Below are positions 9,226-60,172 of a stretch of DNA of 64,000 nt, in pieces. Source of the stretch: Anaerolineales bacterium. GTDB lineage: Bacteria > Chloroflexota > Anaerolineae > Anaerolineales > UBA4823. The stretch spans positions 1,983-65,982 of the forward strand of contig JAGVAD010000017.1 of NCBI GenBank assembly GCA_020060465.1, written 5' to 3'. The notes under the pieces were generated by a model. It saw nothing but the letters and a program-made list of their open reading frames with translations. It was not told the origin of the DNA and did no database searches. The position numbers and the translations under genes were made by a program. The stretch's first letter is position 1. Every line of letters starts with the position of its first letter.

Positions 9226-9250
9226 TGCGAGAAGCGTTGGTTTGAAAGAG

Positions 9251-9736: not shown

Positions 9737-9751
9737 ACAAACCTCCATCCT

Positions 9752-31267: not shown

Positions 31268-32296
31268 CTAATGAATGCGTAACACCTTCGCGCCGCGAAT
31301 CTTGCCCTGCTTCAGTTCTAATAACGCCTGGTTGGCCTGGCTGAGGTCATATTCCTGGTATTCCGGGCGGATGGGGATTTCCGCTGCCAGCTTTAGAAAT
31401 TCGCTGACATCTCTCCGGCTGACATTGGCGACGCTCAAGATGGATTTTTCCATCCATAAATGCGTCGGATAGTCCAGTTGTAGTAGGGCAGCCTTGTCGC
31501 TCTCTTCTTTGCGAATGGCATTGATCACCAGCCGCCCACCCGGGGCCAGATTGCGCATGGCTTCTACCACCGGCAGCCAGACCGGCGTCGTATCAATGAT
31601 GCGATCCAAAGGCTGCGGAGCGCGGTCGGTGATCGCGCCAGCCCACACTGCTCCTAACTGGCGGGCGAACGCCTGTTCCTTCTCGTTGCGGCTGAATACA
31701 TACACCGGGCTGTGCGGATAGACGTGGCGCGCCAACTTCAGGACAATGTGAGCTGATGCGCCAAAACCCGTCAGCCCCAGTTTTTGTCCATTCTGCAACC
31801 CGGCGAGGCGCAGAGAGCGATAACCAATGGCGCCGGCGCAAAGCAACGGAGCGGCTTCAGCATCGTTAAACACCTGCGGAATAGGGTAGGCGAAACTTTC
31901 GGAGACGGTCATGTACTCCGCATATCCACCGTTTGCATCGCGACCAGTGGCGCGGAAATCGGGGCAACGATTTTCGTTGCCCGCCAGGCAATGGGCGCAT
32001 TGTCCGCAGGTCGAATAAATCCAGGCGACGCCCACGCGCTCGCCTACCTGAAAGCGCCCCGCGCCAGGACCGTTCGCCTCCACTCGCCCGACGACCTGAT
32101 GACCTAAGATGACCGGCAGGCGGGGCGGAGGGGTGCGCCCCTCGATCTCATCCAATTCGGTATGACACACGCCACAGGCCGAAACGCGCACCAAAATTTC
32201 CCCCTGCGCGGGGATCGGATCTGGCAATTCAACCAGCTCCAAGGGCGGAATACCATCGCCGAGATTACAGATTTGTTTGAACAGCATAGCTTTCAT
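31268..32296 (-). CDS. Zinc-dependent alcohol dehydrogenase (MDR family)
   Basis: GVCHTELDEIEG catalytic-Zn motif. Structural Zn Cys cluster (CGQCAHCLAGNENRC). GFGASAH Rossmann. Start set at MKAMLFK, with GAGGTG upstream. The 124-codon N-terminal extension in the ORF track crosses a repeat element. Confidence 0.88.
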   Translation of the reverse strand: MKAMLFKQICNLGDGIPPLELVELPDPIPAQGEILVRVSACGVCHTELDEIEGRTPPPRLPVILGHQVVGRVEANGPGAGRFQVGERVGVAWIYSTCGQCAHCLAGNENRCPDFRATGRDANGGYAEYMTVSESFAYPIPQVFNDAEAAPLLCAGAIGYRSLRLAGLQNGQKLGLTGFGASAHIVLKLARHVYPHSPVYVFSRNEKEQAFARQLGAVWAGAITDRAPQPLDRIIDTTPVWLPVVEAMRNLAPGGRLVINAIRKEESDKAALLQLDYPTHLWMEKSILSVANVSRRDVSEFLKLAAEIPIRPEYQEYDLSQANQALLELKQGKIRGAKVLRIH

Positions 32297-32310
32297 AAAC
32301 ACCTCTGGTA

Positions 32311-32328
32311 ACTTATTATATAATAAGT
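32311..32328. promoter_or_regulatory. Perfect 18-bp AT-rich palindrome ACTTATTATATAATAAGT (possible operator and/or -10 elements)
   Basis: Perfect dyad symmetry. Contains TATAAT on both strands. Lies 15 bp upstream of the ADH start codon. Confidence 0.35.
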
Positions 32329-32420
32329 GTTGAAAGCCTTTATGTCCATTTTGATTGCACCGCACTCGACAGCGCATGGACAGAACGAATATTTTCTTTA
32401 GCAATATGCATTCGGCAATT

Positions 32421-32465
32421 CCCCCCACCCCTGGCCCTGCCCTCCAGGGGGCAGGGAAAAGGGGA
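32421..32465. repeat. GC-rich hairpin repeat, copy C
   Basis: CCCCCCACCCCTGGCCCTGCCCTCCAGGGGGCAGGGAAAAGGGG. Shares the CCACCC-T-GGCC-T-GCCC...GGG core with the copies at 8005 and 8098. Followed by a GGTGGTTGT...ACAACCACC inverted repeat. Confidence 0.5.
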
Positions 32466-32636
32466 AACTGGTGGTTGTCACGCGGCATCGCCACCCAAAA
32501 ACAACCACCCCCCTTTGTTCCAGGTCTAAGGGAAAAGGATAAGAAAGACGGGTTCCAAACATTCTCTAGCATTGAAAACTTCAGGTCGAAATTCTTTGTA
32601 ACGGTGATCCGATGATCAGATCGGGGGTATGTTAAG

Positions 32637-34217
32637 ATGCGCATCCGGTTGAAGGAAGACTTAATCATTGCGGGTGCAACGATGGTTTTTTATTTATCGC
32701 TGGGGGGGTATCTCAGTCTCTATCGTCATTACCTGCCCTACGACAGCCTGGCTCGACTGGTGAGCGCCTGGTTGGTTTTCTATGGAACAGAGACCAAACT
32801 GGCTTCCATCGGTTTTGTCTGGCCGCCAATCCCCACTCTGGCAATCCTCCCCTTCACCATTTTCCCCTGGATGGTCGAGAGTTGGTTCGCAGTGGTAGCA
32901 GTTTCAGCAGTAGCTACCGCTCTGTCTTGTGTGGCGATCAATCACCTGGCTGCCTTATGCGGCTTTCCCTCTGGCTGGCGCTGGGCAGTGGTCTTTTTAT
33001 TCGCAATCAACCCTCTTATCATCGTCTTCGGCATCAATGGAATGAGCGAAGCGCTGTTGATGTTGTTTTTGCTTACTGCCTGTTACTGGCTGGTGCGCTT
33101 CTGGCAAAGCGACCGTAATACTTACCTGATTATTTCCGGCAGTTTCTTTGGGTTGTTGCCTCTGGTGCGATATGAATTTATCTTGATCACTTTGTGGAGC
33201 GGTTTGATTCTGGTGGCGCTGTGCTGGAAACGGCGCAACAGCTTCTCCGAGTTTGAGTTCCGAGAGTTCTTAGAGGGCCGGCTGCTGGCTTATGGTTCGC
33301 TGGCGATTTATCCCTTGTTTCTGTGGGCAGTGGCCAATTGGTTCATTATGGGGAATCCGCTCTATTTCCTATTCAACAATCGCAGCGCGGTCAGCCTGGC
33401 GGAGATGCAGCTTTCGGGCTATGTTAACCTGGTCACCAGTTCCTCGTATTCTTTCCGCCTGGTTTTTGGGGTCTGGATTTCCCTGTTCTTCCTGGGAGCG
33501 ATTGGCAGCCTGACAGCCCTTATCATCGGCTGGCGGCAGAAATCGCTCTTTATGAACTATCTTGCGCTGATGTTCTGGATCATCCCGGCAGTACAGTTCA
33601 TCCTGCTCATCCAGCGCGCCAATGTGCCGCTGTTGCGATATTTTGTCATGTCCATCCCGTTGGGGTTCGTGATCGCTCTAGTTGCGGCGTATCGTCTCTT
33701 GCCGATTGTATCGAATGATCGGCGCGGGAAGATGCTCTTTTTCGGTGTGTTCATTTTCCTTACCATTGCCTCCAATGTCGTGTCATGGATGACATTGGAA
33801 AGATACCCCTATCAGGACATCGAGCGGGAGTCCTGGAGAGGCATCACCACCAAAGAACCGCTGGACAATAGAAACTTCGATCAAGCTTACCAGATTGGCC
33901 AACTCTTGCCGAATATCATCCCTGCCGGCTCGCGAGTGTTGATTGATACCTACCAATTTGGCTTTGGCATTATGCTGGGGGCGAAAGACCATGCGCTATT
34001 CTTGGATTTCACCGACCCCAACTATGAGGAGGCGCTCAAAAATCCACCAGCTTATGTAGATTATCTCATTCTGCCACGCCCTGAGCAACGCGGCGCGCTA
34101 TATGCGATCAATATCGCCCAAAAGAAGCTTTATTCAGAAGGCGCGTCCTGGGCGGAATGGTTGGACGTGCTTCCTACTACAGATTTGGGATGGAAACTAT
34201 ATAAGGTCAAAAGATGA
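32637..34217 (+). CDS. Polytopic GT-C-type membrane glycosyltransferase-like protein (ArnT/PMT_2-like; family uncertain)
   Basis: About 11-12 TM helices followed by a soluble C-terminal domain of about 130 aa. Located directly upstream of a polyprenyl-phosphate GT2. Confidence 0.55.
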   Translation: MRIRLKEDLIIAGATMVFYLSLGGYLSLYRHYLPYDSLARLVSAWLVFYGTETKLASIGFVWPPIPTLAILPFTIFPWMVESWFAVVAVSAVATALSCVAINHLAALCGFPSGWRWAVVFLFAINPLIIVFGINGMSEALLMLFLLTACYWLVRFWQSDRNTYLIISGSFFGLLPLVRYEFILITLWSGLILVALCWKRRNSFSEFEFREFLEGRLLAYGSLAIYPLFLWAVANWFIMGNPLYFLFNNRSAVSLAEMQLSGYVNLVTSSSYSFRLVFGVWISLFFLGAIGSLTALIIGWRQKSLFMNYLALMFWIIPAVQFILLIQRANVPLLRYFVMSIPLGFVIALVAAYRLLPIVSNDRRGKMLFFGVFIFLTIASNVVSWMTLERYPYQDIERESWRGITTKEPLDNRNFDQAYQIGQLLPNIIPAGSRVLIDTYQFGFGIMLGAKDHALFLDFTDPNYEEALKNPPAYVDYLILPRPEQRGALYAINIAQKKLYSEGASWAEWLDVLPTTDLGWKLYKVKR

Positions 34218-35164
34218 ATAAGCCCCAGATTTCCGTTGTGCTACCTGTTTACAATGAAGCGGAAGCTGTGGAGGAAGTGGTGCAGCAGGTAATTGAGACG
34301 CTCTCCACAGCCGGGAAGTCTTTCGAAGTGCTGGCAATTAACGACGGTTCTCAGGATTGTTCTGAAGAGAAATTGCTAAAGTTACAAAGAGAATATCCTC
34401 AATGGCTGCGTGTCGCCGCTCATGTGCATAACAAAGGCAACGGCGCAGCCTTGCGCACCGGCATCCGCCTGGCGCGAGGAGAGATCGTCGTGTGCATGGA
34501 CTCGGATGGGCAGCATCGCGCAGCAGAAATGCTCAACCTGCTGGCGAAGATACCGCCGTATGATATGGTCGTCGGCGCGCGGACACGCGACTACGCTGGC
34601 AAATGGTATCGAAATTTAGGCAATCATTTTTATAACTGGTTTGCCAGTTGGCTGACTCAATATCCCATTCTTGACCTGACATCGGGTTTCCGAGCTATGC
34701 GGCGGGAGGCAGTGCTGCATTTCCTGCCCTTGTTTCCGGCCGGTTTTTCTTCCCCCACTACCCTCACCATGGCTTTTTTGAAAGCCGGCTATAGCGTCGC
34801 TTATGTACCGATCCAGGTATACCCACGTACACTGGGCAAGAGCAAAATCAACGTCCTAAAAGATGGGCGTAAATTTGTCCTGATTATCCTGCGCATGATC
34901 ATGCTCTATGACCCCTTGCGCATCTTCTTACCGATCTCCAACTTTCTTCTGTTCTTGGGCCTGGCGGCCATGGCAGCCGGTGTTTGGGCGGCGGGGAGAT
35001 TGGTTGTGCCGGGCTCTTCGGTGGTATTATTCATTGCCGGGGTATTAGCCATGCTGTTGGGTTTGGTATCCAGCCAGATCTCCAATGCAACGATCACTTA
35101 TCACGGCGACGAGTTCGTTAAACTATACGAAGCGCCGTTTAGCGGGGCGAATGAAGAAAGCTGA
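34214..35164 (+). CDS. GT2 polyprenyl-phosphate sugar synthase (DPM1/GtrB/ArnC-like)
   Basis: ISVVLPVYNEAE, INDGSQD and MDSDGQH (DXD) motifs. Two C-terminal TM helices. Overlaps the previous gene by 4 nt. Confidence 0.85.
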   Translation: MNKPQISVVLPVYNEAEAVEEVVQQVIETLSTAGKSFEVLAINDGSQDCSEEKLLKLQREYPQWLRVAAHVHNKGNGAALRTGIRLARGEIVVCMDSDGQHRAAEMLNLLAKIPPYDMVVGARTRDYAGKWYRNLGNHFYNWFASWLTQYPILDLTSGFRAMRREAVLHFLPLFPAGFSSPTTLTMAFLKAGYSVAYVPIQVYPRTLGKSKINVLKDGRKFVLIILRMIMLYDPLRIFLPISNFLLFLGLAAMAAGVWAAGRLVVPGSSVVLFIAGVLAMLLGLVSSQISNATITYHGDEFVKLYEAPFSGANEES

Positions 35165-36185
35165 GCCGCCAGCCAAAAACTGGCGAGCTGTCACTACATT
35201 TCTTCGCGCAACTTTTTTGCTGGCTTTGGTAGCGCCGCTTGGCTATGCCATTTATCAGCAGTGGGCAGAAGTCCGCCAGGTTCTGGCGCAGGTCAACTGG
35301 CTCCAGGCGTCGCTTGGCTGGGTGATCTTGATGCTGGCGCAGCCCTTCATGGGCGCCATCTCCTGGATCGTGTTGCGCTATTTGAAACAGGATTTTGCTT
35401 ACTGGCGTATTACTGCGGTCTATTTCATCTCGCAAGCGGCAAAGTATCTGCCTGGCGGCATCTGGGCTTTTCCGGGACGTGTAGCGGCTTATCAAGCCAT
35501 TGGCGTAGAAAAATCCGCCTCGGTGATCAGCCTTGTGCAAGAAGTTGGGGCACTTTTCTTAGGAGCTGCGACGTTGGGAATCATTGGCATTTTCAACGGG
35601 CTGCTCATCGAGAACTGGGTGCGCACGGCGGCACTTGCCGGGGCGTTCGTATGTCTGGCAGCAACGTTGTTCTCGCAACATCCCCTGACATGGAAAGCGC
35701 TCGCACAGGCGCGACGCGCCTTGGAGGCGCTCAAATTCAAACTCAAAAGCGGCAAGCGGCAACCAACAGAAGAAGCTGACCAAGTGATCAGCGCGCCTCG
35801 AGGCGAAAGCCCGCCGGGGACATTCAGTATCGCCTGGGCACCAGCCTCTTTGCTAACCAGCCTGATGTTCTGGCTATTGGTAGGCGTCGGTTTTTACTAT
35901 CTGGCGATCAGCGTCGCGCCGCAACTGCGGCTGCTCTCCTGGCTGCAAGCAACCAGCATTTTCGCCCTGGCATGGTGCGCCGGCTTTGTCATCGTCCTGG
36001 CGCCAGCCGGCCTGGGGGTGCGCGAAGCGGCGCTCTCCGGCCTGTTAGCCGCCTACATTCCGCTTAGCGAGGCCTTGAGCGTAGCGCTGATGGCGCGTTT
36101 GTGGTGGACGTTGGGGGAAGCGCTCTTTATCTTGATTTCGCTCGCTTGGGCGTCAACTAATGCGCATTGGAATGTTCGTCGCTGA
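35151..36185 (+). CDS. Lysylphosphatidylglycerol-synthase-TM-region / UPF0104 flippase-like membrane protein
   Basis: About 8 TM helices and an AKYLPGGIWAFPGRV motif. Start set at MKKAEPP, which overlaps the GT2 stop. Confidence 0.65.
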   Translation: MKKAEPPAKNWRAVTTFLRATFLLALVAPLGYAIYQQWAEVRQVLAQVNWLQASLGWVILMLAQPFMGAISWIVLRYLKQDFAYWRITAVYFISQAAKYLPGGIWAFPGRVAAYQAIGVEKSASVISLVQEVGALFLGAATLGIIGIFNGLLIENWVRTAALAGAFVCLAATLFSQHPLTWKALAQARRALEALKFKLKSGKRQPTEEADQVISAPRGESPPGTFSIAWAPASLLTSLMFWLLVGVGFYYLAISVAPQLRLLSWLQATSIFALAWCAGFVIVLAPAGLGVREAALSGLLAAYIPLSEALSVALMARLWWTLGEALFILISLAWASTNAHWNVRR

Positions 36186-36234: not shown

Positions 36235-37986
36235 TCACTTCTGCACCAAAGGGAGAAACAAATTATTTGGCCCAGTGATCGGCAGGCTGAAGGCAGGGAA
36301 CAATTGCTGATCGGTGTTTCCAGTAATGGGGTCGCGCAAATAATAGTCGCCGGTCAGGTTGCCTGGAACGCGCATGGTCAGGCGATAACGCAACCACAGC
36401 CCGCTGCTGACACCAGGTAAGAGGCGCAGGCGCAAGGAGTAGTTCTTCACCCCGCCGCCAAAGAGAGGCTCGCTGGCTTCATAGATGGGATGGACTGTTA
36501 CCATACAAGGGGTTGAGCAGCCATTGGCTTTGACCAGACTGCCCACCGGGTAAGAGGTCCAAACGCCGCCTGGCGAGGCGTTTGTAACTGTGATGGCATT
36601 TGAGAAGCTCACCGTCAGGTACATCTGTTCGGCGTCGGCGCCGGTGTAAGAAACGCTGAAGGTCAGGTCCTTCTCCTGGTCAGGATAAAGCTCCAACGGA
36701 GCGGGCGCTGCCGTCACGTCAATCGGGTACGGCTGGACGGTAAAAGCAGGCAAAAGGCTTGAGGTGAAGAAACCCAATAAATAGGTGTGATCTTTTATAC
36801 GCAGCGTGTAGGAAACTTGCTCGGAGATGGTTGAGGATGGCGGAGCTATTAACGAGTAATTCAGATCGCCTACGCCAGCGCCATACGGCAACGACGAGAG
36901 GCTGACATCCTGGCTGGGAGTTTGGGTGTGGCTGTCATAGACGGTCTCTCCATTTTGCATCAATTCCAGCGACCCCATCACGACATCATTCACTGGATTG
37001 CCCCAATTGGAAATTTTCAAGCTGACGGTGATTGGCTCGCCGGAATAGAATGCTGTGCGCTCGCGGTTGGCGGCGTCTTTGACGCGAAAATTGCTAATGC
37101 TGATATAGGGGGCGGGAAAATTCGGGTCCACACGGCGCATGAAAAACCAATAAGGATCACTTGGATTGAGATCCAAAGAGACATCTCGCTTGATGGCGCG
37201 GCGAGGCAAAGCCCACAGATCGGAAATGGAGGGATTAGCCAAACCATCGTTCGGGCTAAAACCCACTGCGGCGGAATAGCCGGCAGTCTGCACGTTGGCT
37301 CGCACGGTTGGGTCCATAGACCCATCGCCATAAGGATAGGCAAAAAAGCGGGTGGGGTTTTGTGGGAGATGGGTTTGGATATCCTGGCGGGATTGATTGA
37401 GCTGATATTGCTGCTGCGCAGAACTCAGGCCGGTCAAAGCCAGGTGGGACACTGTGTGCGACTCGATGGCAAAACCGTCTTGATATAAACTAGCCACTTC
37501 AGGCCAGATTAGGTGATAAGCCGGCGGTTCGGGAGGATAAGGCTGCCAATCCTGGTTGTCCTGACGCTGCTCGTCTGTTTCAGCCACTTTCCCGGTGATG
37601 ATGAAGAATGTGGCGCTCATGTTCCGCTCTTTTAAGATCGGCGCGGCGTAATCGAACAACCCTTGAAAGCCGTCATCGAAAGTCAGGATGATGGGTTTCT
37701 CCGGCGGCTGTCCAACGCCCTGGGTGTAGTCCATGTAATCATCCAGACCGATCGTCTGATAGCCATAAGCTTGCAGTACGTCCATCTGGCGCGCAAATTG
37801 ATCTGCGGTCACGTACCATTCCGTAGGGGCAGTCTGGTCAATTTTATGATAAGCCAGGATGGGGATGTTGATATCGAACGGCGACTGCGGATCCAGCAAA
37901 GCACGCGCCAACGCCCGGCTATTTGCCTTCATCGGCGCCAGAGAGAGCAGCGCAATTACAATACCTAAGAACCAGCGGGTTTTCAT
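36235..37986 (-). CDS. Secreted CE4 (NodB-homology) polysaccharide deacetylase with a C-terminal beta-rich extension of about 300 aa
   Basis: Signal peptide (MKTRWFLGIVIALLSLAPMKA). ILAYHKI. TFDDG (motif 1). HTVSH (motif 2). The ATGA start/stop overlap couples it to the synthase gene. Confidence 0.85.
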   Translation of the reverse strand: MKTRWFLGIVIALLSLAPMKANSRALARALLDPQSPFDINIPILAYHKIDQTAPTEWYVTADQFARQMDVLQAYGYQTIGLDDYMDYTQGVGQPPEKPIILTFDDGFQGLFDYAAPILKERNMSATFFIITGKVAETDEQRQDNQDWQPYPPEPPAYHLIWPEVASLYQDGFAIESHTVSHLALTGLSSAQQQYQLNQSRQDIQTHLPQNPTRFFAYPYGDGSMDPTVRANVQTAGYSAAVGFSPNDGLANPSISDLWALPRRAIKRDVSLDLNPSDPYWFFMRRVDPNFPAPYISISNFRVKDAANRERTAFYSGEPITVSLKISNWGNPVNDVVMGSLELMQNGETVYDSHTQTPSQDVSLSSLPYGAGVGDLNYSLIAPPSSTISEQVSYTLRIKDHTYLLGFFTSSLLPAFTVQPYPIDVTAAPAPLELYPDQEKDLTFSVSYTGADAEQMYLTVSFSNAITVTNASPGGVWTSYPVGSLVKANGCSTPCMVTVHPIYEASEPLFGGGVKNYSLRLRLLPGVSSGLWLRYRLTMRVPGNLTGDYYLRDPITGNTDQQLFPAFSLPITGPNNLFLPLVQK

Positions 37987-40900
37987 TCAACAGAATCCGG
38001 TTGCGGCGTATTGGCATTCTCGGTGACAGGGACTCCTTCGTAAAGACCATGTTCGGTCTTCTCCCAAAAGTGCGGGCGGGTGAGCAATTGCCCAAAACCT
38101 TTCCAGGCGCCAATGCTGGCTAAGCCCCAATAGAGAGGAGTGAGCAAAGCGTATTTGACCATCCCATAATAGCCGCGCCGCAGCGCGCCGGCCACATTCA
38201 TGTAAGTGAATGCAAAGTTGCCGATAAAGAGACAAATCGCGCCCAGATAAAAGATCGCGCCAGGGAAAATCTTTTGGATGAGCTGCCATTGCACCAAAAA
38301 CCATAACGTGGTCAACAGCCAGTAGACCGGGTTAAGCAACGCAGCAAAGAAGGTGCCGCCAATCACAAATTGAAAGCCCAGAAAAGCCTTAAAGCCAATT
38401 TCACGGATCAGCTTCGCCGGGTTGCGCATGTGAACCAGCCAGGTCTGGATGTAACCCTTGATCCAGCGCGAGCGCTGGCGGATCCAGTTATAGATCTGGC
38501 TGTTAGCTTCTTCATAGGTGGTGCTGTCAACAATCGCCGTCTTATAGCCGCGCTTATACAGGCGGATGCCCAAATCGGCATCCTCGGTGACGTTATATGG
38601 GTCCCATGCGCCTACCTCGATCAAAGCTTCGCGGCGGAAGTGATTGGAGGTGCCGCCAAGAGGGATTGGCGCGCCGCTGGCATCCAGTCCTGGCAGGAAA
38701 AGATCAAACCACATCGAGTATTCGACGGTGAACCAGCGGGTGAGCAGGTTTTGATTGCGGTTGTAGTAATTCAACTTGGACTGGATGCAAACCACATCCG
38801 GCGGCGCTTTGCTGAAAGCGACGACGATCTTTTTCAACTGATCCGGCTCAGGCAGGTCTTCTGCGTCATAGATGACCACATAATCGCCCCTGGCGTGGAT
38901 CAGGCCGTAATTACAGGCTTTGGGCTTGGTTTTCGGCTGTCCATAAGGCACAATGATGCCGTGGAAATGGGAGGGGGGGTTCCAACGATAGAACGCCTGA
39001 ATTGTCTCCTGATCGTCCGCTTCCATCAAGATTTTGATATCCAGCTTGGCTTGCGGATAATCCAGTTTGCGCAGCGAATTGAGCAACTCCACCAACACTT
39101 CGGCTTCACGATAAACCGGAATGAGAATGGTGTAAATTGGCAGGTCGCGGTCATCTAACTTGCGAATATCTTCTTCTGTCACCGGCACTTCCAGATCGCG
39201 GGATAAGGCGCGGTAGATCAGGTAGAACTTATACGTAGAGAAGGATAAATAGAAAGCTGTGAAAATCAGATTGATCGTGATCAAATAACTGACATAGTCG
39301 AATAGCAGCCAGGCAACTGAAATAACCAGGAAAATGAGCAAGGCAATCTGCTGGCCTCGGCTCAATACACGGTAGGCCGAATCTTGCGGCGAGCGTTCCA
39401 GTAGCTCTGAAATAGAACGCGCCAGATAATGGTCACTATACAAGCGATCCAGGGCGGCATCCAGATCATTTTCGGTGACCAGCACCGGGGTGATGGGCTC
39501 GCCCAAAGCCTCATGGGCAAAATCCAGCGCCTGATTATCCAACGGATCCACAACAGCCAACAGGATGCGCCCATCCTGCCTGCCGATGGGGAGAACCCCA
39601 TTCTGCCGCGCGGCTTGTGGGTCAATGCGTTGCGCCGTTTGCCGATCTATCTGCACTTCTTCCAGCCCATAGAACGGCAATCCGGACTGCTCCGCAAGCG
39701 CGTGATAGACCTGTTCCCAGGTCACATAGCCGCGATGAACCAGAGCGTGCCCAAGCCGAATGCCGGTGCGCTGCGCATAACCCAAGGCGTCATTCAACTG
39801 AGCGCGAGTGATCAGGCCCTCCATCAAGAGGTAGGTACCAATGTTTCGTCGCCCCAGGTGGCGTTGAATGGCATCCTTCAACTCTCGGCGTGTGACCAGG
39901 GCCGGAATGATTTGGCGTTTCAGGGTTTTCTCAAGAGCAGTCTGGGCGGCTTCATATAAGGGATTGGCAAAGGCGACGCGCAGCTTATCACCCTGGAACG
40001 CCACCGGCAGGGCGGAAAGTTGCTGAGCCGTCTCCTGGTCAATCAATGTAGCCGCGGAAAGATCAACCGGATCGTGGACAGTCACCCGCTCGATGGGTTT
40101 TCCCAACGGATCAATGACCTGAACCAGGCGTTCTTCCAAATCCAGGTGAAGGATGGGCAACCCCAAGAGGCGGGAATACGCCTGAACCAGTTGCGCCTGA
40201 TCCAGCCCGCTGGAGCGCCAGATGGCTTCATCCAGCGGCATGTGCAACTCCACATACTCATTCAGCGCCTGGGTTGCCTGGGTGTGGGTAATATAGCCAT
40301 TCTCCACCAGGCGGGTGGTCAACGCCTGGGCTGGCGAAAGGAGCGTACCCGCAGCTTGAACCCCGACCCAGCGCTCCAAAGCAGCAGTAATGGCTGCACG
40401 TGGGGCAATCACCGGACGGACGCGCTTTCCACAAGCCTGCTCTGCGGCGCGCAAGCCAGCCACATCCAATGGGTCGGCGATGACCAGCCACAATTCGTTT
40501 GCGCCAGACCAAATTGGCAACATACTATGCTCAAGCGCCAGACGAGAGGGAATTTCTGCGATGAGCTTTTCATCAAAGCGGACATGATCCAGGCGAATGT
40601 GGGGCAAGCCGGTTTGCAAGCTAAGCGCCTCGGCCATGTCCGCATCATCTAACAAACCTTCTGCCACCAGTTGCGTCCCCAGGCGCGGATCCAGGGCATG
40701 GTTATGGGATAACACTTTCTCCATTTGCTCTGGGGCAACCAGACCCAGGCGCAGCAGGATATTGTCCAAAGATGGCATTGTTTGAAGCGCTTCTCGGGGA
40801 GGTCGGTCGGATAAATGAGCCAAATGCGCTTCCAGAATCTCCCGCGGTATTAACCGCGGCGTTACTTTCAAACGGGTCAGCGCCTGCGCCAGTTTCACGA

Positions 40901-41945
40901 CCTCTGGGTTGGGTTGAGACATCCCTAATACAAGATCATCGCCCTCCACGCGCAAGGGGATCATCTTGAAGCGGCGCGCCACTTTGAGCGGGATGAGGTT
41001 TTCGACCGCGGCGTTATCCGTTATCCTGGTTTCTATCTGCGTTTTTGAGGCATGGGACAGAGCGCGCAACCAGTCATTGTCCGAAATCAGCCCTCTTTCA
41101 ATGAGAATCGAGGCTATCGGGCGGTGGGTCTGTCGGCTGGCGGCGCGGCTGATCTGGAGATCCAGATCGGTGAGTTTGCCGGTCTTCATCAGCCAATGAA
41201 TGGCTTCCTGATCGTATTTCGCCGGATTTGGCTGCCCGGTCAGGTAGATTTTTCGATAATAGCGATCCCACAAGTCATAAGGGCAAACAATTGGCTGCAC
41301 TGGCGTTCCAACGATCTGAGACAGCTCAGCCAGGCGATCTACGTCTTCGATCCCAGCCAGACCCACCACCAGAACGCCATCCAGCCACCATAGCGGTAGG
41401 GCGCGACGCTCCTGCGCCGCCTCCCAGGGGATCAGCCCAGCCAGTTCAGGCGTTGGCTCGAGTCCAGATGACCGCAGATGTGGGATACCAAACAATAAGC
41501 CGGTGGCTTCAGCCAGCGCCTGCTCATCGGTCAATCCGAGACGGCGCACCGCCTGCTCCGGGGTAACGTTTGCGCTGCGTTGTACAGCCGCCAATTGTTC
41601 GAGGCCCGAATCATCCAGATAACCGAGTAAATAGAGGATGCGTTCCAAACCCGGGCGCTGCACCTTTTTGCTCTCGCCGCGATAGAAACGATCTAACGCA
41701 TCCCATAACTCTGGATAATTGACTTGATAGGCGCGCACTGGCCGCCGACAAATGGTCTGTAATTCGCGCAGTCTTTGCTGATCGCAGGCGTCAGCGCAAG
41801 CAATCACCAGCTCGTTCTTCTCCAGCCAGAGCGGGGCAGCCAAATACTGACGCGCCGCCTCTTCTGGAAGTATTCGCAAGGCGAATGGATCAGGTTCGAC
41901 GCCATCTAAACGAATAAAGGTGGGAGGAGCTTGCGCAACGATCAT
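37983..41945 (-). CDS. Processive family-2 glycosyltransferase (exopolysaccharide synthase) fused to about six N-terminal T2SS-E N-terminal / MshEN-like modules
   Basis: The C-terminal third has 2 TM helices, a GT2 core (LIPVYREAE; YDAED; TED; QRSRW = QxxRW) and about 4 more TM helices. The N-terminal 865 aa contain repeated GSPII_E_N-like units (G[LI]P..., ...LPL/LPI..., ...V....DPLD). These carry MshEN-type motifs, for example RLGTQLVAEGLLDDADMAEALSLQ. Confidence 0.85.
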   Translation of the reverse strand: MIVAQAPPTFIRLDGVEPDPFALRILPEEAARQYLAAPLWLEKNELVIACADACDQQRLRELQTICRRPVRAYQVNYPELWDALDRFYRGESKKVQRPGLERILYLLGYLDDSGLEQLAAVQRSANVTPEQAVRRLGLTDEQALAEATGLLFGIPHLRSSGLEPTPELAGLIPWEAAQERRALPLWWLDGVLVVGLAGIEDVDRLAELSQIVGTPVQPIVCPYDLWDRYYRKIYLTGQPNPAKYDQEAIHWLMKTGKLTDLDLQISRAASRQTHRPIASILIERGLISDNDWLRALSHASKTQIETRITDNAAVENLIPLKVARRFKMIPLRVEGDDLVLGMSQPNPEVVKLAQALTRLKVTPRLIPREILEAHLAHLSDRPPREALQTMPSLDNILLRLGLVAPEQMEKVLSHNHALDPRLGTQLVAEGLLDDADMAEALSLQTGLPHIRLDHVRFDEKLIAEIPSRLALEHSMLPIWSGANELWLVIADPLDVAGLRAAEQACGKRVRPVIAPRAAITAALERWVGVQAAGTLLSPAQALTTRLVENGYITHTQATQALNEYVELHMPLDEAIWRSSGLDQAQLVQAYSRLLGLPILHLDLEERLVQVIDPLGKPIERVTVHDPVDLSAATLIDQETAQQLSALPVAFQGDKLRVAFANPLYEAAQTALEKTLKRQIIPALVTRRELKDAIQRHLGRRNIGTYLLMEGLITRAQLNDALGYAQRTGIRLGHALVHRGYVTWEQVYHALAEQSGLPFYGLEEVQIDRQTAQRIDPQAARQNGVLPIGRQDGRILLAVVDPLDNQALDFAHEALGEPITPVLVTENDLDAALDRLYSDHYLARSISELLERSPQDSAYRVLSRGQQIALLIFLVISVAWLLFDYVSYLITINLIFTAFYLSFSTYKFYLIYRALSRDLEVPVTEEDIRKLDDRDLPIYTILIPVYREAEVLVELLNSLRKLDYPQAKLDIKILMEADDQETIQAFYRWNPPSHFHGIIVPYGQPKTKPKACNYGLIHARGDYVVIYDAEDLPEPDQLKKIVVAFSKAPPDVVCIQSKLNYYNRNQNLLTRWFTVEYSMWFDLFLPGLDASGAPIPLGGTSNHFRREALIEVGAWDPYNVTEDADLGIRLYKRGYKTAIVDSTTYEEANSQIYNWIRQRSRWIKGYIQTWLVHMRNPAKLIREIGFKAFLGFQFVIGGTFFAALLNPVYWLLTTLWFLVQWQLIQKIFPGAIFYLGAICLFIGNFAFTYMNVAGALRRGYYGMVKYALLTPLYWGLASIGAWKGFGQLLTRPHFWEKTEHGLYEGVPVTENANTPQPDSVE
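38451..39143 (-). other. Domain region: GT2 catalytic core (aa 935-1165 of the synthase)
   Basis: D, DxD (DAED), TED and QRSRW motifs in canonical order. The C-terminal tail after the last TM helix is only about 35 aa, so there is no PilZ domain. Confidence 0.8.
39351..41945 (-). other. Domain region: about six tandem MshEN/T2SSE_N-like modules (aa 1-865 of the synthase)
   Basis: Approximate module boundaries are aa 10-90, 100-235, 245-380, 390-528, 537-697 and 699-838. The best motif matches are at aa 421-444 (nt 40614-40685) and aa 700-753 (nt 39687-39848). Confidence 0.7.
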
Positions 41946-41948
41946 GGA

Positions 41949-42254
41949 TCAGTCTTCAGAATCCGAGCGCTCCGAATAGGTCTTTAACAGAGCCTCGCGC
42001 TCCTGACGCGCCCGCTGTTGGCGTTTTTTCACGGTCATGTATAAGCCGAAGTCAGAAATCATATAGATCACGGTGACCAAACCGATCAACAACACCGGCA
42101 AGGTAAAATATCCCAGGAAAATCGCCAGGAAAAGCGTAACCCACAACACCAAGATCATGACCACCCGACCGAGGATGACCAACGTCACCCAGAAATCCGT
42201 GGCCGGATTACGTTCCAGGTCATGGTTCTGATCTTCGCGGCGTCCCTGATCCAT
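41949..42254 (-). CDS. Small 2-TM membrane protein with a basic/acidic C-terminal tail (hypothetical)
   Basis: 101 aa, with two hydrophobic helices at about aa 21-70. Its stop lies 3 nt before the synthase ATG. Confidence 0.6.
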   Translation of the reverse strand: MDQGRREDQNHDLERNPATDFWVTLVILGRVVMILVLWVTLFLAIFLGYFTLPVLLIGLVTVIYMISDFGLYMTVKKRQQRARQEREALLKTYSERSDSED

Positions 42255-42288
42255 ATCTGCCTCCCCGGTTGTTCAGAACTTGCCCTTC

Positions 42289-43161
42289 TTAGTCCGCCGG
42301 GCGAATCTGAGTGGCTTCGTGCAATTGTGCATATTGCACAAAAGGACGACCGGTGGTCTCTGCGACGTGCAAAGCAGCTTCGGCGGCGCGCATCAGTTCT
42401 TCCTCAGTAACGCCATCGGCTGGAAATTGGGCGATGCCAATGTGCAGCGGAACACGCAGTTTTCGCTGCACGCTTTCCAACAGACGAGCGACGACCTTTT
42501 GCGCCCCTTCGAGATTCGTTTCGGGCAGGATGGCGCCAACCTTTTCGCCGCTGAAGGGGATATCCATCGCCCTCAACGAGGCGGGCAGTAATTCAAGCAT
42601 CTGGCGTTTCATCTGTTCCAGTTCGCTGGCACCCAGTTCCTCTTGCAAGCTTTGCTGGTTTCCGATTTTGAGCAGCAAGACACACAAATATTTATCGTAA
42701 CGCTGGCTGCGCAACACCTCCGAGCGCAACGTCTGATACACATAGCGATAACGCATGATACCGGTATCCGGATCATACAGGCGCAACTCTTCGATCAGCT
42801 TTTGATCGTTGCCAATCTGGCGGTAGAGGCGATGGATCTCCGCAGCCGTCCATCCACCCAGCCAGGCGGTAATGACCAAGGCGACCGCCATGACGGTCAG
42901 AGGTAAAACAATGTCAATTGTCATACCTTTCAACCCCGCCTGGACAAAGAAATAGACGATAAAAGAAAGCAGCGCGGCAACCCAGTTCGAATATCGAAAC
43001 AAGCCGGTGAGCGCAAAGGCAACAGTGAAACCTAACAACGCCAGCGAAAGCGGCAGATTGGCTGGGTCAGCAAATAACAGACCCATCATGCTGAAGATCA
43101 GCCAGACGCCCAGGATAGCGGGCAGAAAGCGCAGTGTACGGCTAAAGGGTTGGAGACTCAT
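42289..43161 (-). CDS. 4-TM membrane protein with a degenerate (probably inactive) GGDEF domain
   Basis: GGDEF-fold blocks (YDPDTGIMRYRY...; ...GAILPET...; AEAALHVAETTG). The signature is SGEKV instead of GG(D/E)EF. The DxDxFK metal site is replaced by LLKIGN. An RxxD-like RAMD lies just upstream. Confidence 0.75.
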   Translation of the reverse strand: MSLQPFSRTLRFLPAILGVWLIFSMMGLLFADPANLPLSLALLGFTVAFALTGLFRYSNWVAALLSFIVYFFVQAGLKGMTIDIVLPLTVMAVALVITAWLGGWTAAEIHRLYRQIGNDQKLIEELRLYDPDTGIMRYRYVYQTLRSEVLRSQRYDKYLCVLLLKIGNQQSLQEELGASELEQMKRQMLELLPASLRAMDIPFSGEKVGAILPETNLEGAQKVVARLLESVQRKLRVPLHIGIAQFPADGVTEEELMRAAEAALHVAETTGRPFVQYAQLHEATQIRPAD

Positions 43162-45409
43162 GGCTCTTCCCTGCCTTTCGACGATTCATGAATTCGGAAA
43201 CTGCAATCAACAGCAGAAGCACCAGTGTAACCAGGAATAGACCACCTGCCAGCCAGGCGACCCAGCGCGGCGTTGACGGTTCGCTTTGGGTTGAGGGCGT
43301 AATAGGCGCAGGCGCGGCTGGCTTATGGATATAAGCGGTGGTGATGGCGCCATCGGCGTCTAAGATAGCCAGATCGCCGTTCAGGTCGCGGATTAAGGCC
43401 GGGTCTGTCAACGCCCTGGCCGCCCACTCAACTCCTTGAGAGTCGCTGCCGGTGACGACCAGGCGGGGTTTGCCGTCCGAGGTCAGCGCTGCCTGCACAT
43501 AACCGGTTGAGCCGTTCGGCGGCAAGATGCGAGCAATCTGCGCATTCGGCTTTGGATCGTTAGAGCCTTCCACAAAAGGCAGGGGTAACAATGCGTTCAG
43601 CCGGGCAATGGCGCTGTTCTCCTTGGGCGCGCCCAACAAGATCTGATAAGGGGTTTGGACGGAGGTTTCGGTTTGATCTGGGCGAATGACACGCGGCGCC
43701 AGGGTTTCGCCTTCGGCGGCGCGACCAATACGCCCAGCGATGCCGACGATGGCATTTGCAATAGTCAAATCGGGCGAGACAGGCGCCACAAAAGCCAGAT
43801 CGGAGAGATCCGGGCGACCGATGAATCCAAATGGGTAATCAGACAGGTTGAGGGCGAGCATCGCCGGGCCGCCCGGCAGATTCAAGCGAGTATCCGAAAA
43901 TACCACCACCCAGGCCTCGGCGATATATTCTTCATCGCATTCTTGATCGTCCTCATAATTCTCTATCAACTCGATGCTGGTTGTAACCGTGATGCGGTTC
44001 TCGCCGATCTTGAGTTGTCTGGCAGGAATGATAAATCTGGAATGCCCATCGTCGGCGTTATCATTATCGAGCAAGATGCTGCCAATGGGCGAGCCGTTGA
44101 CGGAGACGGTGAGCGAGGATTTTTGCTGATGAAGCAGCTTAGAATGAGCAAAATGCAAATCCAGGCTGGCTTCAGTAAGCACCTGCCATTGCATGGGCAG
44201 CGAGATGATGAAATTCAACGATTGTTGGCGGGTGCCGGAAGCGGTTTCATCTCGATACCCTAGCTCCTCCAGGGTGATCACCTGTTTGAATTCATTATCT
44301 TCGCCGCTCGGCTCAGGCGTATGCAAAACGATGCCCAACTGACCGCGTAAACGAGGATAAACGGCTGCGCTTGCCAGCGCCCGAGCGGCGGCAAGCAGAC
44401 CCTCATCGGTCGGCCCGGTAACGACCATTTCCACTGCTGTGGGGTCATCGCTGGAATTCTGCATCCATAGCACACCGCTGGAGGGATCCACCTGGACGCC
44501 ATCTTCCGACTTCAACCTGACCTGTTCTCCATCTACAAAAACGAAGGGGAATTCTCGCGAGCGCAATACTCCCAGCCGGTCGGCCTGTCCGACATACATG
44601 ACATCGCCGCCTGGTTGGGATAGAGCAGCAAACTCGGTTTCGTTCAAAACCTGAAAGGTCAGTGTGCGCCAGGCGGCCAGTTGTCCAAGTTTGGCGCTGA
44701 TCAAAGCCAGGGCGTTCATCTCGGCAAGGGTCGCATCATCTGGAATGACAAAAGTCAACGAGTTTTCTATCAGCCCGCTGTTATCCAGGATCGGCGCAGG
44801 ATAATCGCCCAGGTTCGCTTGTGGAACGGCCAGATCATAAGAGAGTTCAAAGAAAGAGCTGCTTTGAATGGTGGCCCATGTGGCGGGATTGTTCGGGTCC
44901 TCGCAACGGTCGTCATGAATGCCCATGTACAGCACGATGCGCAGTTGGTTGTAGCCCTTATCAATCTGATCTTCGGGAATGCTCACCGTCAGGCTGCCGC
45001 CGTCCGCGTTTTCCGGCGTCAGCAGGATGCTACCCAGGCGGACGCCGTTCCAGTCAACAGCCAGGCTGGAGTAGCGTTCCAAAACGGGCGAGTGTTTAAA
45101 TTCCACGGTGAAAGCGTTGCCAGGGCGAACATCCCAGGCGTCGGGCCAATTAAATGTGTAAGAGCGGGTGGCTGAAATCCCCTGCAGGGTCTCATCTCTG
45201 GTATATCCGAGATCTGCCAAAGTCAGGGTCTTGGTCAGCACACGCGGCGCGCTGAATTGCCCGTTCGTCGGTTGGCGTGAGGGCAAGATTTCCGAGCGGT
45301 AGCCAATCGCCACGGGCGGCGCCGTGGACGCTGCCAAAATCGGCGTTGGCCTTGCGCCCAAAACAGAAACGATTGTAAAGATCACCAGCCAGAGCACTTT
45401 GTGTGCCAT
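43142..45409 (-). CDS. BcsB-like (cellulose-synthase subunit B family) periplasmic/extracytoplasmic protein with a C-terminal TM anchor
   Basis: Two BcsB-type repeats (LTLADLGY...LAVDWNGVRLGSILL...NQLRIVL...CEDPNNPATW; ITLEELGY...LTVSVNGSPIGSILL...NRITV...). C-terminal TM helix WVAWLAGGLFLVTLVLLLLIAV. Start set at MAHKVLW, with GGAGAGGTGAT upstream. Overlaps the next gene by 20 nt. Confidence 0.8.
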   Translation of the reverse strand: MAHKVLWLVIFTIVSVLGARPTPILAASTAPPVAIGYRSEILPSRQPTNGQFSAPRVLTKTLTLADLGYTRDETLQGISATRSYTFNWPDAWDVRPGNAFTVEFKHSPVLERYSSLAVDWNGVRLGSILLTPENADGGSLTVSIPEDQIDKGYNQLRIVLYMGIHDDRCEDPNNPATWATIQSSSFFELSYDLAVPQANLGDYPAPILDNSGLIENSLTFVIPDDATLAEMNALALISAKLGQLAAWRTLTFQVLNETEFAALSQPGGDVMYVGQADRLGVLRSREFPFVFVDGEQVRLKSEDGVQVDPSSGVLWMQNSSDDPTAVEMVVTGPTDEGLLAAARALASAAVYPRLRGQLGIVLHTPEPSGEDNEFKQVITLEELGYRDETASGTRQQSLNFIISLPMQWQVLTEASLDLHFAHSKLLHQQKSSLTVSVNGSPIGSILLDNDNADDGHSRFIIPARQLKIGENRITVTTSIELIENYEDDQECDEEYIAEAWVVVFSDTRLNLPGGPAMLALNLSDYPFGFIGRPDLSDLAFVAPVSPDLTIANAIVGIAGRIGRAAEGETLAPRVIRPDQTETSVQTPYQILLGAPKENSAIARLNALLPLPFVEGSNDPKPNAQIARILPPNGSTGYVQAALTSDGKPRLVVTGSDSQGVEWAARALTDPALIRDLNGDLAILDADGAITTAYIHKPAAPAPITPSTQSEPSTPRWVAWLAGGLFLVTLVLLLLIAVSEFMNRRKAGKSHESPTL

Positions 45410-45669: not shown

Positions 45670-46617
45670 TTAATTGACCACACCATACATTTGATCCGGC
45701 GTCAGAACCTCTGGAAAGCGAGGCCGCAGCGCCAGCCGGCTCTGATAACACAGATGACAGGCATCCGCGAAACCGCCGCGCAGAGGCAGATCGTAACTGC
45801 GCACCAGCGCAGCAGGCCCGCCGGATAAAAGCGGGGCTGCAATGGGGTGCATAAGCGGATCGTATTGGCGGATGACCTCAGCCAACGGTTGGTGATAGAG
45901 GTTGCCAATGGCGATGCCCTGGCAAAGATGGAGGTAACCGAACGGATCCACATGTAACCGTCCTGGATTTGCCAGGTCTTCGTAGGGACAGCGATCCAAT
46001 TCTTCCCACTGGGTTAGCGGAACAAGAGGGGTCAGCTTTTCGGCGGCGCGCCCACGATACATCAACCTGGCTGGCTCATCCGCTGCAATTTGACCATGCG
46101 AAGCGACCGAAGCCGTCGCTTCTGGCTGCGCAACCTGGATAAAGCCAACAGGGATGCCCAACGCCTCAGCCGCCTGGCGGGCGTTTTGCGCCTGTTGACT
46201 GACCATTTCATTGTAGTGATAGAGATCGCTGCTCACCGAAAGATCCTGGATCAGACCTGCCAGCGGCACAAGCCACAGGCGGGCGTCTTCTGGCGTGGTA
46301 GCCCAATAAGCGTTCGAGACCACCCCTACACGGAAGTCCATTTGGGCAGCTAGCTGCGCTGCTTTGAAGAGGAGCGGGGAATACAGAAACGGTTCGCCGC
46401 CCTCGAAATAGATTTCGCTAACTGTGCCTAGCTCTTGCGCCTGATGTAATATCAACTGAATATCCTGCAACGTCATCACGCCGGATTGCCAGGGACTACC
46501 CCAAACGAAGCAATGATCGCACTCAAAGGTGCATTGATAGGTCAACAAAAGGTGAAGACCATGAATATCCATATCAAAAGGGGGCAAGAAATAGCCAGAG
46601 GCTCTTCCTGCGAGCAT
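45670..46617 (-). CDS. Radical SAM protein with a Cys-rich C-terminal (SPASM/twitch-like) region
   Basis: CTFECDHC = CX3CX2C. FEGGEP. C-terminal Cys residues (CPYED...HLCQG...CHLC). The start is uncertain; an alternative is MDIHG at 46572. Confidence 0.7.
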   Translation of the reverse strand: MLAGRASGYFLPPFDMDIHGLHLLLTYQCTFECDHCFVWGSPWQSGVMTLQDIQLILHQAQELGTVSEIYFEGGEPFLYSPLLFKAAQLAAQMDFRVGVVSNAYWATTPEDARLWLVPLAGLIQDLSVSSDLYHYNEMVSQQAQNARQAAEALGIPVGFIQVAQPEATASVASHGQIAADEPARLMYRGRAAEKLTPLVPLTQWEELDRCPYEDLANPGRLHVDPFGYLHLCQGIAIGNLYHQPLAEVIRQYDPLMHPIAAPLLSGGPAALVRSYDLPLRGGFADACHLCYQSRLALRPRFPEVLTPDQMYGVVN

Positions 46618-47202: not shown

Positions 47203-47580
47203 TTACTGGGCCTCTGCAGCAGCGTCTTCAACTGGCGGTTCAACGATTGGCGAGGCGGTTATTTCGCTCGCTGCTCCTTGCGCCTCTTCGATTTTCTTTT
47301 GCGCTTCCGCCAACTGAGCTTTAAGGTCTGCCAGATTGGTTTCCATCTCATTCATTTTCTTACGTTGCTGGCGAATCGTCCAGCGCGCCCGAACATTGGA
47401 GGGCAGCGACACGAAAAAACTCATCAGCGCGCCAGACAGCAAAGCAACCAGCAACACCAGAGCCAGCGAGCTATCGAAGCGCCACAGCAAGAACGAGACC
47501 TGCACCGGCGCGCTATTTTGCAAAGCAAATACCACCGCCATCAGGGCAATAAACAGAGCGAAAAAGAGAAAAATCTGCAT
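47203..47580 (-). CDS. LapA-domain (DUF1049) membrane protein with a C-terminal coiled coil
   Basis: MQIFLFFALFIALMAVVFALQN...two TM helices, then NEMETNLADLKAQLAEAQKKIEEAQ. GGGAGG RBS 6 nt upstream of the chosen start. Confidence 0.65.
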   Translation of the reverse strand: MQIFLFFALFIALMAVVFALQNSAPVQVSFLLWRFDSSLALVLLVALLSGALMSFFVSLPSNVRARWTIRQQRKKMNEMETNLADLKAQLAEAQKKIEEAQGAASEITASPIVEPPVEDAAAEAQ

Positions 47581-47634
47581 AACGAGCCTCCCAGACAAAT
47601 TGAGTATGTCCGAACGCCGATCCCAACAAACCGC

Positions 47635-60096: not shown

Positions 60097-60172
60097 GAAG
60101 GCCTCTTTTTCCCTAAGGATCAATCAGACTTTTATGTATCGTAGAAGACAGAAAGTTTTAACAGAGTTTGCA

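Follow-up and report, generated by a model that had tools for sequence, protein, structure and literature searches.

The 64,000-nucleotide stretch of DNA analysed here (hereafter the window; contig JAGVAD010000017.1 of assembly GCA_020060465.1, positions 1,983 to 65,982) comes from a metagenome-assembled genome (MAG) of Anaerolineales and carries a gene cluster that probably encodes a synthase-dependent glycan secretion system activated by cyclic di-GMP (c-di-GMP). Five minus-strand open reading frames (ORFs; 45409..43142, 43161..42289, 42254..41949, 41945..37983 and 37986..36235) are joined, in gene order, by a 20-nt overlap, a 34-nt gap, a TGA-tcc-ATG junction and an ATGA overlap, which agrees exactly with the five packed genes that an earlier note, drawn up from the letters of this DNA, had placed here. 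Purine-rich stretches resembling ribosome-binding sites (RBS) precede the first and third start codons. For the first gene, ATG 45409, which has the RBS-like GGGGAGAGG ahead of it and yields a signal peptide (MAHKVLWLVIFTIVSVLGA), is the credible start and is preferred to TTG 45541, from which an alternative ORF with 44 extra residues and no signal peptide would be read. The features of the five genes are as follows.

43142 to 45409, minus strand: BcsB-family extracytoplasmic subunit (755 aa) with a signal peptide, a duplicated BcsB-type region and a C-terminal transmembrane (TM) anchor at aa 720-738.
42289 to 43161, minus strand: degenerate-GGDEF protein (290 aa, four TM helices) with SGEKV at the GGDEF position and a RAMD I-site at aa 197-200.
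41949 to 42254, minus strand: 101-aa hairpin protein with two TM helices by hydropathy; at Anaerolineae-like loci its gene is conserved just ahead of that for the synthase.
39408 to 41945, minus strand: N-terminal cytoplasmic arm of the synthase (aa 1-846), made of six MshEN-type modules.
39687 to 39845, minus strand: predicted c-di-GMP site, formed by the tandem 24-residue motifs (aa 701-753) of M6, the membrane-proximal module (aa 697-846).
37983 to 39407, minus strand: C-terminal part of the synthase (aa 847-1320), for catalysis and the channel, with two TM helices, the GT2 domain and about four C-terminal helices (PF13632 and PF13641).
36235 to 37986, minus strand: secreted CE4 polysaccharide deacetylase (583 aa; PF01522, 4e-28), whose C-terminal ~330 aa have no assigned domain.

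Profile searches bore out every domain assignment proposed earlier (BcsB, T2SSE_N/MshEN, GT2, CE4 and GGDEF). The 1320-aa synthase (record MDI6695838.1) matches the MshEN family PF05157 in six stretches (2.5e-84) and Glyco_trans_2_3 (4e-27), and Pfam gives no match to PilZ (PF07238), so its description as a synthase with an MshEN array and no PilZ domain stands. The GT2 motifs are DDQET (977), DAED (1027), TED (1120) and QRSRW (1157); both hydropathy and an AlphaFold2 (AF2) model place two TM helices ahead of the GT2 domain and about four behind it. The model of aa 690-1320 is of high quality (pLDDT 89, pTM 0.90), and the top Foldseek matches of the catalytic part are BcsA, hyaluronan synthase and chitin synthase (Chs1), of which BcsA was also found by sequence (1e-14).

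The arm was cut into six modules by internal alignment, and each half-motif was scored against the published 24-residue MshEN motif (PMC5013675). Module M1 has no 4-helix bundle. M4 is half-intact, with a perfect motif II and an Asp in place of the motif I glycine, and M2, M3 and M5 are degenerate. Hence, only the membrane-proximal module M6 has a near-complete c-di-GMP site, which is predicted to be functional: its motif II, RLGHALVHRGYVTWEQVYHALAEQ, agrees at 11 of 11 positions and its motif I at 8 of 11, with both critical glycines and all hydrophobic positions kept. The key residues of M6 are invariant in an alignment of the window protein with seven relatives, one of which, an 895-aa protein from Solirubrobacterales, has a perfect double motif. 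Moreover, the AF2 model of the MshEN module superposes on c-di-GMP-bound MshE (TMt 0.85, root-mean-square deviation 2.2 A) and on PilF GSPII-B (TMt 0.80), and the best sequence match of the arm in the PDB is Thermus PilF (8e-27). The large MshEN array, which had been singled out as distinctive, is thus confirmed in its six modules, five of which have degenerate c-di-GMP motifs. In an exhaustive comparison of the distal arm (aa 1-689) with 1.84 billion representatives, 31 proteins were found at E<=1e-30, about 20 of them co-linear and 1250-1345 aa long (counted as representative clusters, Anaerolineae-like). Since the six-module arm occurs in only ~20 clusters, we regard it as a small-clade elaboration.

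The BcsB-like protein matches PF03170 in Pfam (1.6e-64) and BcsB chains in the PDB (1e-10), and NCBIfam BcsB models match two separate stretches of it with scores far under the equivalog cut-offs. According to the gene-order strings, its gene is invariably followed directly by the degenerate-GGDEF gene in Anaerolineae-like loci. The product of the latter matches PF00990 (1e-10) and has four TM helices by hydropathy. When the window protein was aligned with 11 orthologues, the signature was degenerate in all 12 sequences (SGEKV, IGNEY, DQKTI and others) and the metal and GTP positions were gone, whereas the RxxD I-site just upstream of the signature was kept in 12 of 12. A degenerate GGDEF domain combined with RxxD is the signature of an I-site receptor; the protein is therefore a putative c-di-GMP receptor of the PssE/YdaK/PelD type. 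PelD is a 4-TM inner-membrane protein in which c-di-GMP bound at the RxxD of a degenerate GGDEF domain switches on exopolysaccharide (EPS) synthesis (cited in PMC4125290 and PMC12448109). Four TM helices and RxxD are common to both proteins, but PelD carries a GAF domain between its TM and GGDEF parts; in the window protein Pfam finds no GAF domain and 290 aa leave no space for one, so that it is unlikely to belong to the PelD family.

The 101-aa protein belongs to no family in Pfam or NCBIfam, PgaD included, and its assignment to PgaD was rejected because the likeness is one of topology only. Hairpin ORFs of 45-110 aa with two TM helices stand at the same position, directly upstream of the synthase, in many Actinomycetota loci, and we propose that the 101-aa protein assists the synthase as a structural subunit. 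In seven Bacillota loci (L059, L062, L069, L073, L075, L081 and L083) a ~72-91-aa soluble, charged, coiled-coil-like protein replaces the hairpin upstream of the synthase. In a short-arm Anaerolineaceae locus (L029; synthase of 729 aa) the gene directly upstream (9194-9916, plus strand) starts like a response-regulator receiver domain and stands where the degenerate-GGDEF or the small protein would be expected, and the family member P0029 also has a Response_reg Pfam domain. These two cases suggest alternative regulatory inputs within the synthase clade.

Convergent to the five-gene operon runs a trio of genes (32637-36185).

32637 to 34217, plus strand: GT-C fold glycosyltransferase (526 aa; weak PMT_2 match, 1.2e-6, and AF2 fold).
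34214 to 35164, plus strand: GT2 resembling polyprenyl-phosphate sugar synthases (316 aa; PF00535, 1e-24).
35085 to 36185, plus strand: LPG_synthase_TM (MprF-flippase-like) membrane protein (PF03706, 8e-17; weak MprF match).

Sequence searches of NCBIfam and the PDB gave no match for the GT-C protein, and its relatives are all annotated as hypothetical. Its AF2 model, built from a 40-sequence alignment (pLDDT 91), has as its top ~27 Foldseek matches only GT-C enzymes that use lipid-linked donors, among them STT3, PglB, AglB, DPY19, ALG12, AftA/B, Pmt4 and ArnT, and residues D36 and R40 of the first loop are invariant, D36 being the acidic residue to be expected there in a GT-C transferase. The GT2 of the trio is most like AglJ, PgfS, ArnC and PpgS among the NCBIfam models, in each case under the equivalog cut-off, and the third gene is of the LPG_synthase_TM type where three-component systems of extracytoplasmic glycosylation (GtrB/ArnC-like synthase, flippase and GT-C) have GtrA. 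A flippase-like gene also lies beside the GT-C gene in L001, L003, L004 and L006. In the subclade of the window the GT-C gene is part of a convergent Flp-Ppm-GTC trio, whereas elsewhere direct adjacency of synthase and GT-C genes is the common state. In Bacillota, a DPM1/ArnC-like GT2 homologue adjoins the synthase gene in 17 of 20 loci, and an operon of Clostridium carboxidivorans encodes, in this order, a ManC-like NTP-transferase, a GT-C enzyme, a GT2 fused to GtrA_DPMS_TM, the MshEN-synthase and BcsB; judged by its gene content, this operon provides a full pathway for a lipid-linked hexose donor, coupled to the synthase. Accordingly, the five-gene boundary drawn for the unit in the earlier note proved too narrow: the most conserved partner in the clade is the GT-C gene next door, together with the GT2 and the flippase-like gene.

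Two further observations concern this partner. In six loci (L012, L015, L017, L061, L065 and L078) one synthase is accompanied by two or three tandem or nearby GT-C paralogues, which hints at several decorations or acceptor specificities. Two loci of Candidatus Zipacnadia (L071 and L076) encode the closest GT2 cores without MshEN (477-519 aa), at 56-58% identity to the catalytic part from the window, with a GT-C gene downstream. Since they keep the GT-C gene without MshEN, the pairing of synthase and GT-C appears to predate the c-di-GMP sensor or not to depend on it.

Relatives of the synthase are encoded at >594 loci in a scan of GTDB representative genomes, and the catalytic part as a protein query finds at least 8000 clusters, all of them generically named. 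The full-length synthase yielded 8 proteins in a word-indexed homologue search, probably because its repeats filled up the list of candidates. The proteins of the window were searched against the six-frame ORFs of 86 loci, and the matches were tabulated by phylum.

Actinomycetota, 41 loci: GT-C in 40, BcsB in 0, degenerate GGDEF in 0; 1-3 MshEN modules.
Bacillota, 20 loci: GT-C in 19, BcsB in 8, degenerate GGDEF in 0; 2-3 MshEN modules.
Long-arm Chloroflexota, 17 loci: GT-C in 14 (7 of the 7 with both flanks), BcsB in 11, degenerate GGDEF in 12; up to 6 MshEN modules.

The clade of synthases with an N-terminal MshEN part, two TM helices and GT2 is very large, spanning Chloroflexota, Actinomycetota and Bacillota, with GT-C as a near-universal neighbour and BcsB, the degenerate-GGDEF receptor and CE4 as lineage-specific additions. 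The JGI label 'glycosyltransferase XagB', named after a Xanthomonas biofilm glycosyltransferase studied genetically, is the name of an orthology group and gives no evidence of equivalence. Relatives with 89% and ~52% synthase identity keep the order BcsB, degenerate GGDEF, small protein, synthase, and this four-gene core is co-conserved down to ~40-52% synthase identity. Degenerate GGDEF accompanies 11 of 11 long arms as compared with 1 of 53 others, a contrast that is confounded by phylogeny and by the inclusion rule and serves as a lead only.

The expected co-conservation of all five genes therefore holds for the four-gene core and breaks down at CE4, which is lineage-restricted. The CE4 gene lies behind the synthase gene in L003, L005 and L006, the closest relatives, and is absent in L001 and L004; as it was found in only 3 of the 17 long-arm Chloroflexota loci and in none of the other loci tabulated, it is not a fixed member of the unit. 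The protein itself has the Asp-His-His metal-site motifs (TFDD at 102, HTVSH at 177). Its NCBIfam matches are partial and under the cut-off (PgaB 64.9 bits vs 321.9, over aa 43-140 only; IcaB 49.7 vs 248), and it has no PgaB C-terminal domain. From the presence of a secreted CE4 enzyme we infer that the polymer backbone contains N-acetyl-hexosamine.

Most of these parts have counterparts in systems of monoderm bacteria. The pssA-E genes of Listeria and ydaJKLMN of Bacillus subtilis encode a BcsB-like protein, a GT2, a TM-anchored degenerate-GGDEF I-site receptor and a deacetylase (PMC4125290, PMC5422440, PMC6307706), so that, by published descriptions, four of the five parts are held in common. 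The Listeria system cannot do without its I-site receptor, PssE (PMC4125290), and EPS production by B. subtilis requires R202 and D205 of YdaK, which has four TM helices (PMC5422440). Could the cluster then be an ordinary orthologue of Pss/Yda, producing EPS of the beta-1,4-ManNAc type, with an extra domain? The common parts list, known by description, the adjacency of pssD and pssE, which mirrors that of BcsB and degenerate GGDEF in the window, and the monoderm-type envelope favour such an origin; for the deacetylases (PssB and the window CE4), the likeness is likewise by description only. However, the clade is defined by an N-terminal MshEN part and a GT-C partner. No c-di-GMP domain is described for PssC or YdaM, unlike the window synthase with its six MshEN modules, nor is a GT-C, polyprenyl-phosphate sugar synthase or flippase partner described for Pss/Yda, all three types of which are present in the window. 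Moreover, Actinomycetota members of the clade lack BcsB and degenerate GGDEF, and among the neighbours scanned (21.9-36 kb and 45.6-63 kb) there is no GH8/GH126-type hydrolase equivalent to PssZ (GH126) or YdaJ, only an unrelated GH25 lysozyme. We therefore consider it unlikely that the cluster is simply a Pss/Yda orthologue of this ordinary kind.

The MshEN-synthase fusion has its precedent in E. coli NfrB, a c-di-GMP-activated MshEN-GT2 synthase (PMC8669469), which going by reviews to 2025 is the only characterised MshEN-regulated glycosyltransferase; fusions of MshEN with glycosyltransferases had been noted by bioinformatics in 2016. Both NfrB and the window synthase are GT2 processive synthases with covalently attached MshEN, with the GT2 motifs in the same polypeptide. 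The MshEN part of NfrB, which has been validated by experiment, shares 27-28% identity with the window modules (27% with M6; BLASTP, E 1e-10 to 1e-16), whereas the GT2 domains share 21% only, and the domain order is GT2-TM-MshEN in NfrB as opposed to MshEN x6-TM-GT2 in the window. The NCBIfam NfrB model NF008411 matches the window synthase at 4.6e-49 with 167.4 bits, against a cut-off of 1170, and the partners differ: outer-membrane NfrA and YbcH for NfrB; BcsB, degenerate GGDEF and GT-C in the window. A tandem N-terminal MshEN array on a membrane-associated machine is also known from Thermus thermophilus PilF, in which only some modules bind c-di-GMP; PilF has three modules and a type IV pilus ATPase as effector, as against six modules and a glycosyltransferase here.

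Given that Pss/Yda share the parts list and that NfrB is a characterised MshEN-GT2 synthase, the earlier premise that no characterised system of this composition is known was too strong. Likewise, the picture of a Bcs/Pga/Pel mosaic is correct as to the types of parts present, yet membership of PgaD fails and that of PelD is not supported, and the glycosyltransferase of Pel, PelF, is not a GT2 synthase. A Pss/Yda-like parts list combined with an NfrB-like receptor principle seems the more apt description. Our literature search, from which most subscription journals fell outside, found no description of N-terminal MshEN synthases, of their GT-C partner or of multi-module arms.

Taken together, we consider it probable that the locus encodes a synthase-dependent glycan secretion system of monoderm-type Anaerolineales that is activated post-translationally by c-di-GMP; the domains, motifs and folds, the M6 site, the conservation of RxxD and the synteny lend good support to the earlier proposal of an EPS machine that is synthase-dependent and gated by c-di-GMP. 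In such a system, the C-terminal 470 residues of the synthase would act as a processive membrane GT2 that builds the polymer from a UDP-sugar and passes the growing chain through a channel of its own, like BcsA and hyaluronan synthase. Binding of c-di-GMP to M6 would relieve the inhibition of GT2, as in NfrB, and the five distal, mostly degenerate modules might conceivably form a cytoplasmic scaffold. The 4-TM degenerate-GGDEF protein, with its conserved RxxD, may be a second I-site c-di-GMP receptor like PssE and YdaK, and the 2-TM hairpin protein would support the synthase structurally. The BcsB-like protein, held in the membrane by its C-terminal helix, would take the chain on the outer face, and the secreted CE4 enzyme would partly de-N-acetylate the polymer in this lineage. 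Finally, the near-universal synteny suggests that the trio supplies and flips a polyprenyl-phosphate sugar, which the GT-C enzyme would add to the nascent polymer outside the cell. Neither a tetratricopeptide-repeat (TPR) nor a beta-barrel exporter was found in the cluster or among the neighbours scanned, which fits an envelope with one membrane only, like that in which Pss and Yda work. The whole window gave no match to Rfam, hence it contains no c-di-GMP riboswitch.

Several points weigh against this interpretation. The GT2 domain is about as distant from the CelA model as from the PgaC and XrtG-type models, and its scores against them lie far under the cut-off. Motif I of M6 departs from the published motif at position 1 (Asn for Arg) and position 24 (Ala for Gln), and many relatives from Actinomycetota fail the MshEN motif pattern in its relaxed as well as its strict form, so that c-di-GMP binding is not assured across the clade. 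Of the genes scanned, none encodes a diguanylate cyclase whose GGDEF motif is intact. The GT-C gene lies on the opposite strand in the window and is therefore not co-transcribed with the synthase gene, and the role suggested for its product is drawn from synteny. Since CE4 is absent from most relatives, an N-acetyl-hexosamine backbone may be confined to this lineage. Besides, the cluster is known here from a MAG, and consensus scans for promoters and terminators gave no more matches than chance would (6 against an expected 5.9 and 14 against 10.9), which would speak neither for nor against a single transcript.

The degeneracy of the arm also feeds a different explanation, in which the MshEN array is a non-signalling scaffold like the N-domains of GspE and XpsE and c-di-GMP acts through the degenerate-GGDEF protein only, or not at all. 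The loss of motifs in five of six modules, critical glycines included, is in line with it, as are the relatives that fail the motif patterns and the precedent of XpsE-type MshEN domains, which do not bind c-di-GMP (PMC5013675). Nevertheless, M6 retains both glycines, the hydrophobic positions and a perfect motif II, is invariant in the eight-sequence alignment and superposes closely on ligand-bound MshE and on PilF structures; hence, we find a purely structural array improbable, and a signalling role for M6 within a c-di-GMP-activated synthase remains our preferred interpretation.

The conservation of the GT-C partner, which exceeds that of BcsB, raises the question of whether the product is a secreted polymer. 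It could instead be an envelope or sheath glycoconjugate on a lipid or protein acceptor, with GT-C as ligase or primer-maker rather than side-chain decorator. GT-C enzymes often glycosylate proteins, lipids and wall polymers, and the structural matches include OST, PMT, ArnT and Aft/Emb; the filamentous habit of Anaerolineae would also suit a sheath component. On the other hand, the synthase has the full fold of processive synthases with its own channel, and both BcsB and a secreted CE4 enzyme are typical of systems for secreted polymers, which makes a glycoconjugate quite unlikely and again favours a secreted glycan.

The least probable explanation, a variant of cellulose (Bcs) or poly-N-acetylglucosamine (PNAG; Pga/Ica) synthase, can be set aside as very unlikely, since the presence of BcsB, BcsA as top structural match, the partial PgaB/IcaB match of CE4 and a small 2-TM protein reminiscent of PgaD/IcaD are opposed by bit scores far below the cut-offs for CelA (TIGR03030, 76.5 vs 699.1; NF008558 for BcsA/CelA, 50.4 vs 992), PgaC/IcaA (TIGR03937, 67.8 vs 422.3) and PgaB, by the lack of PilZ and of a PgaD family match, and by a deacetylase that speaks against cellulose and a BcsB that is foreign to Pga/Ica. 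BcsA-BcsB does share with the window a GT2 synthase with its own channel, a BcsB with a C-terminal TM anchor and, probably, activation by c-di-GMP; but in BcsA the c-di-GMP receptor is a C-terminal PilZ domain instead of an N-terminal MshEN part, and the window has CE4 and the GT-C partner and lacks BcsZ and BcsC.

Beyond the c-di-GMP-activated secretion system itself, we tentatively put forward a broader hypothesis, which we hold to be possible rather than likely: that the cluster represents a widespread class in Chloroflexota, Actinomycetota and Bacillota in which an N-terminal MshEN part and a BcsA/hyaluronan synthase-like GT2 are joined by an obligatory GT-C partner fed with polyprenyl-phosphate sugar, so that the polymer would be branched or finished outside the cell during its synthesis. 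On this view, Anaerolineae would have expanded the receptor into the six-module arm, which co-occurs with, and may dock, the BcsB-paired degenerate-GGDEF receptor.

Other genes of the window also concern c-di-GMP or the cell envelope. A response regulator with REC and GGDEF domains (49981-50856, plus strand), ~4.5 kb upstream of the operon, has a degenerate signature (EGNQF) and keeps RxxD (RPTD), and is therefore another likely c-di-GMP-binding, non-catalytic protein. A 227-aa PilZ protein (30572-31255, minus strand) has intact RxxxR (RMLAR) and DxSxxG (DISMIG) motifs; its gene adjoins a zinc-dehydrogenase-like gene (31268-32668, minus strand) that is divergent from the GT-C gene, and the pair is also found beside the cluster in L003, the 89% relative. 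This protein may be a third c-di-GMP receptor of the system. Further upstream of the operon, a PBP1C-type class A penicillin-binding protein (50853-53435, plus strand; Transgly, Transpeptidase and BiPBP_C) is encoded convergently with a bacterial alpha-2-macroglobulin of 2020 aa (54061-60123, minus strand; MG, A2M and TED domains), which we take to be a case, from Chloroflexota, of the known pbpC/yfhM-type pairing. A radical-SAM gene (45670-46617, minus strand), which relatives do not keep, is located 260 nt ahead of the start of BcsB. The remaining envelope-related genes are those for a LapA-domain membrane protein (47203-47598, minus strand), the GH25 lysozyme with LysM repeats (21920-22873, minus strand) and an L,D-transpeptidase (60173-61783, minus strand) that carries LysM and PG-binding domains.

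Synthase-dependent EPS systems, such as those for cellulose, PNAG, alginate, Pel, Pss and Nfr, are textbook outputs of c-di-GMP signalling. The synthase clade, its coupling to GT-C and the hexa-MshEN arm appear to be unstudied, although the clade amounts to thousands of sequence clusters in three major monoderm-type phyla, with generic annotation only, and its architecture of sensor-synthase plus GT-C is conserved and not described in the searchable literature. The six-module arm offers a natural system for studying what degenerate MshEN domains do. If our interpretation is true, the clade would provide a concrete target of c-di-GMP in Chloroflexota and many Actinomycetota, and it would join two principles of glycosylation in a new way, namely polymerisation by a processive synthase and extracytoplasmic transfer from a lipid-linked donor.

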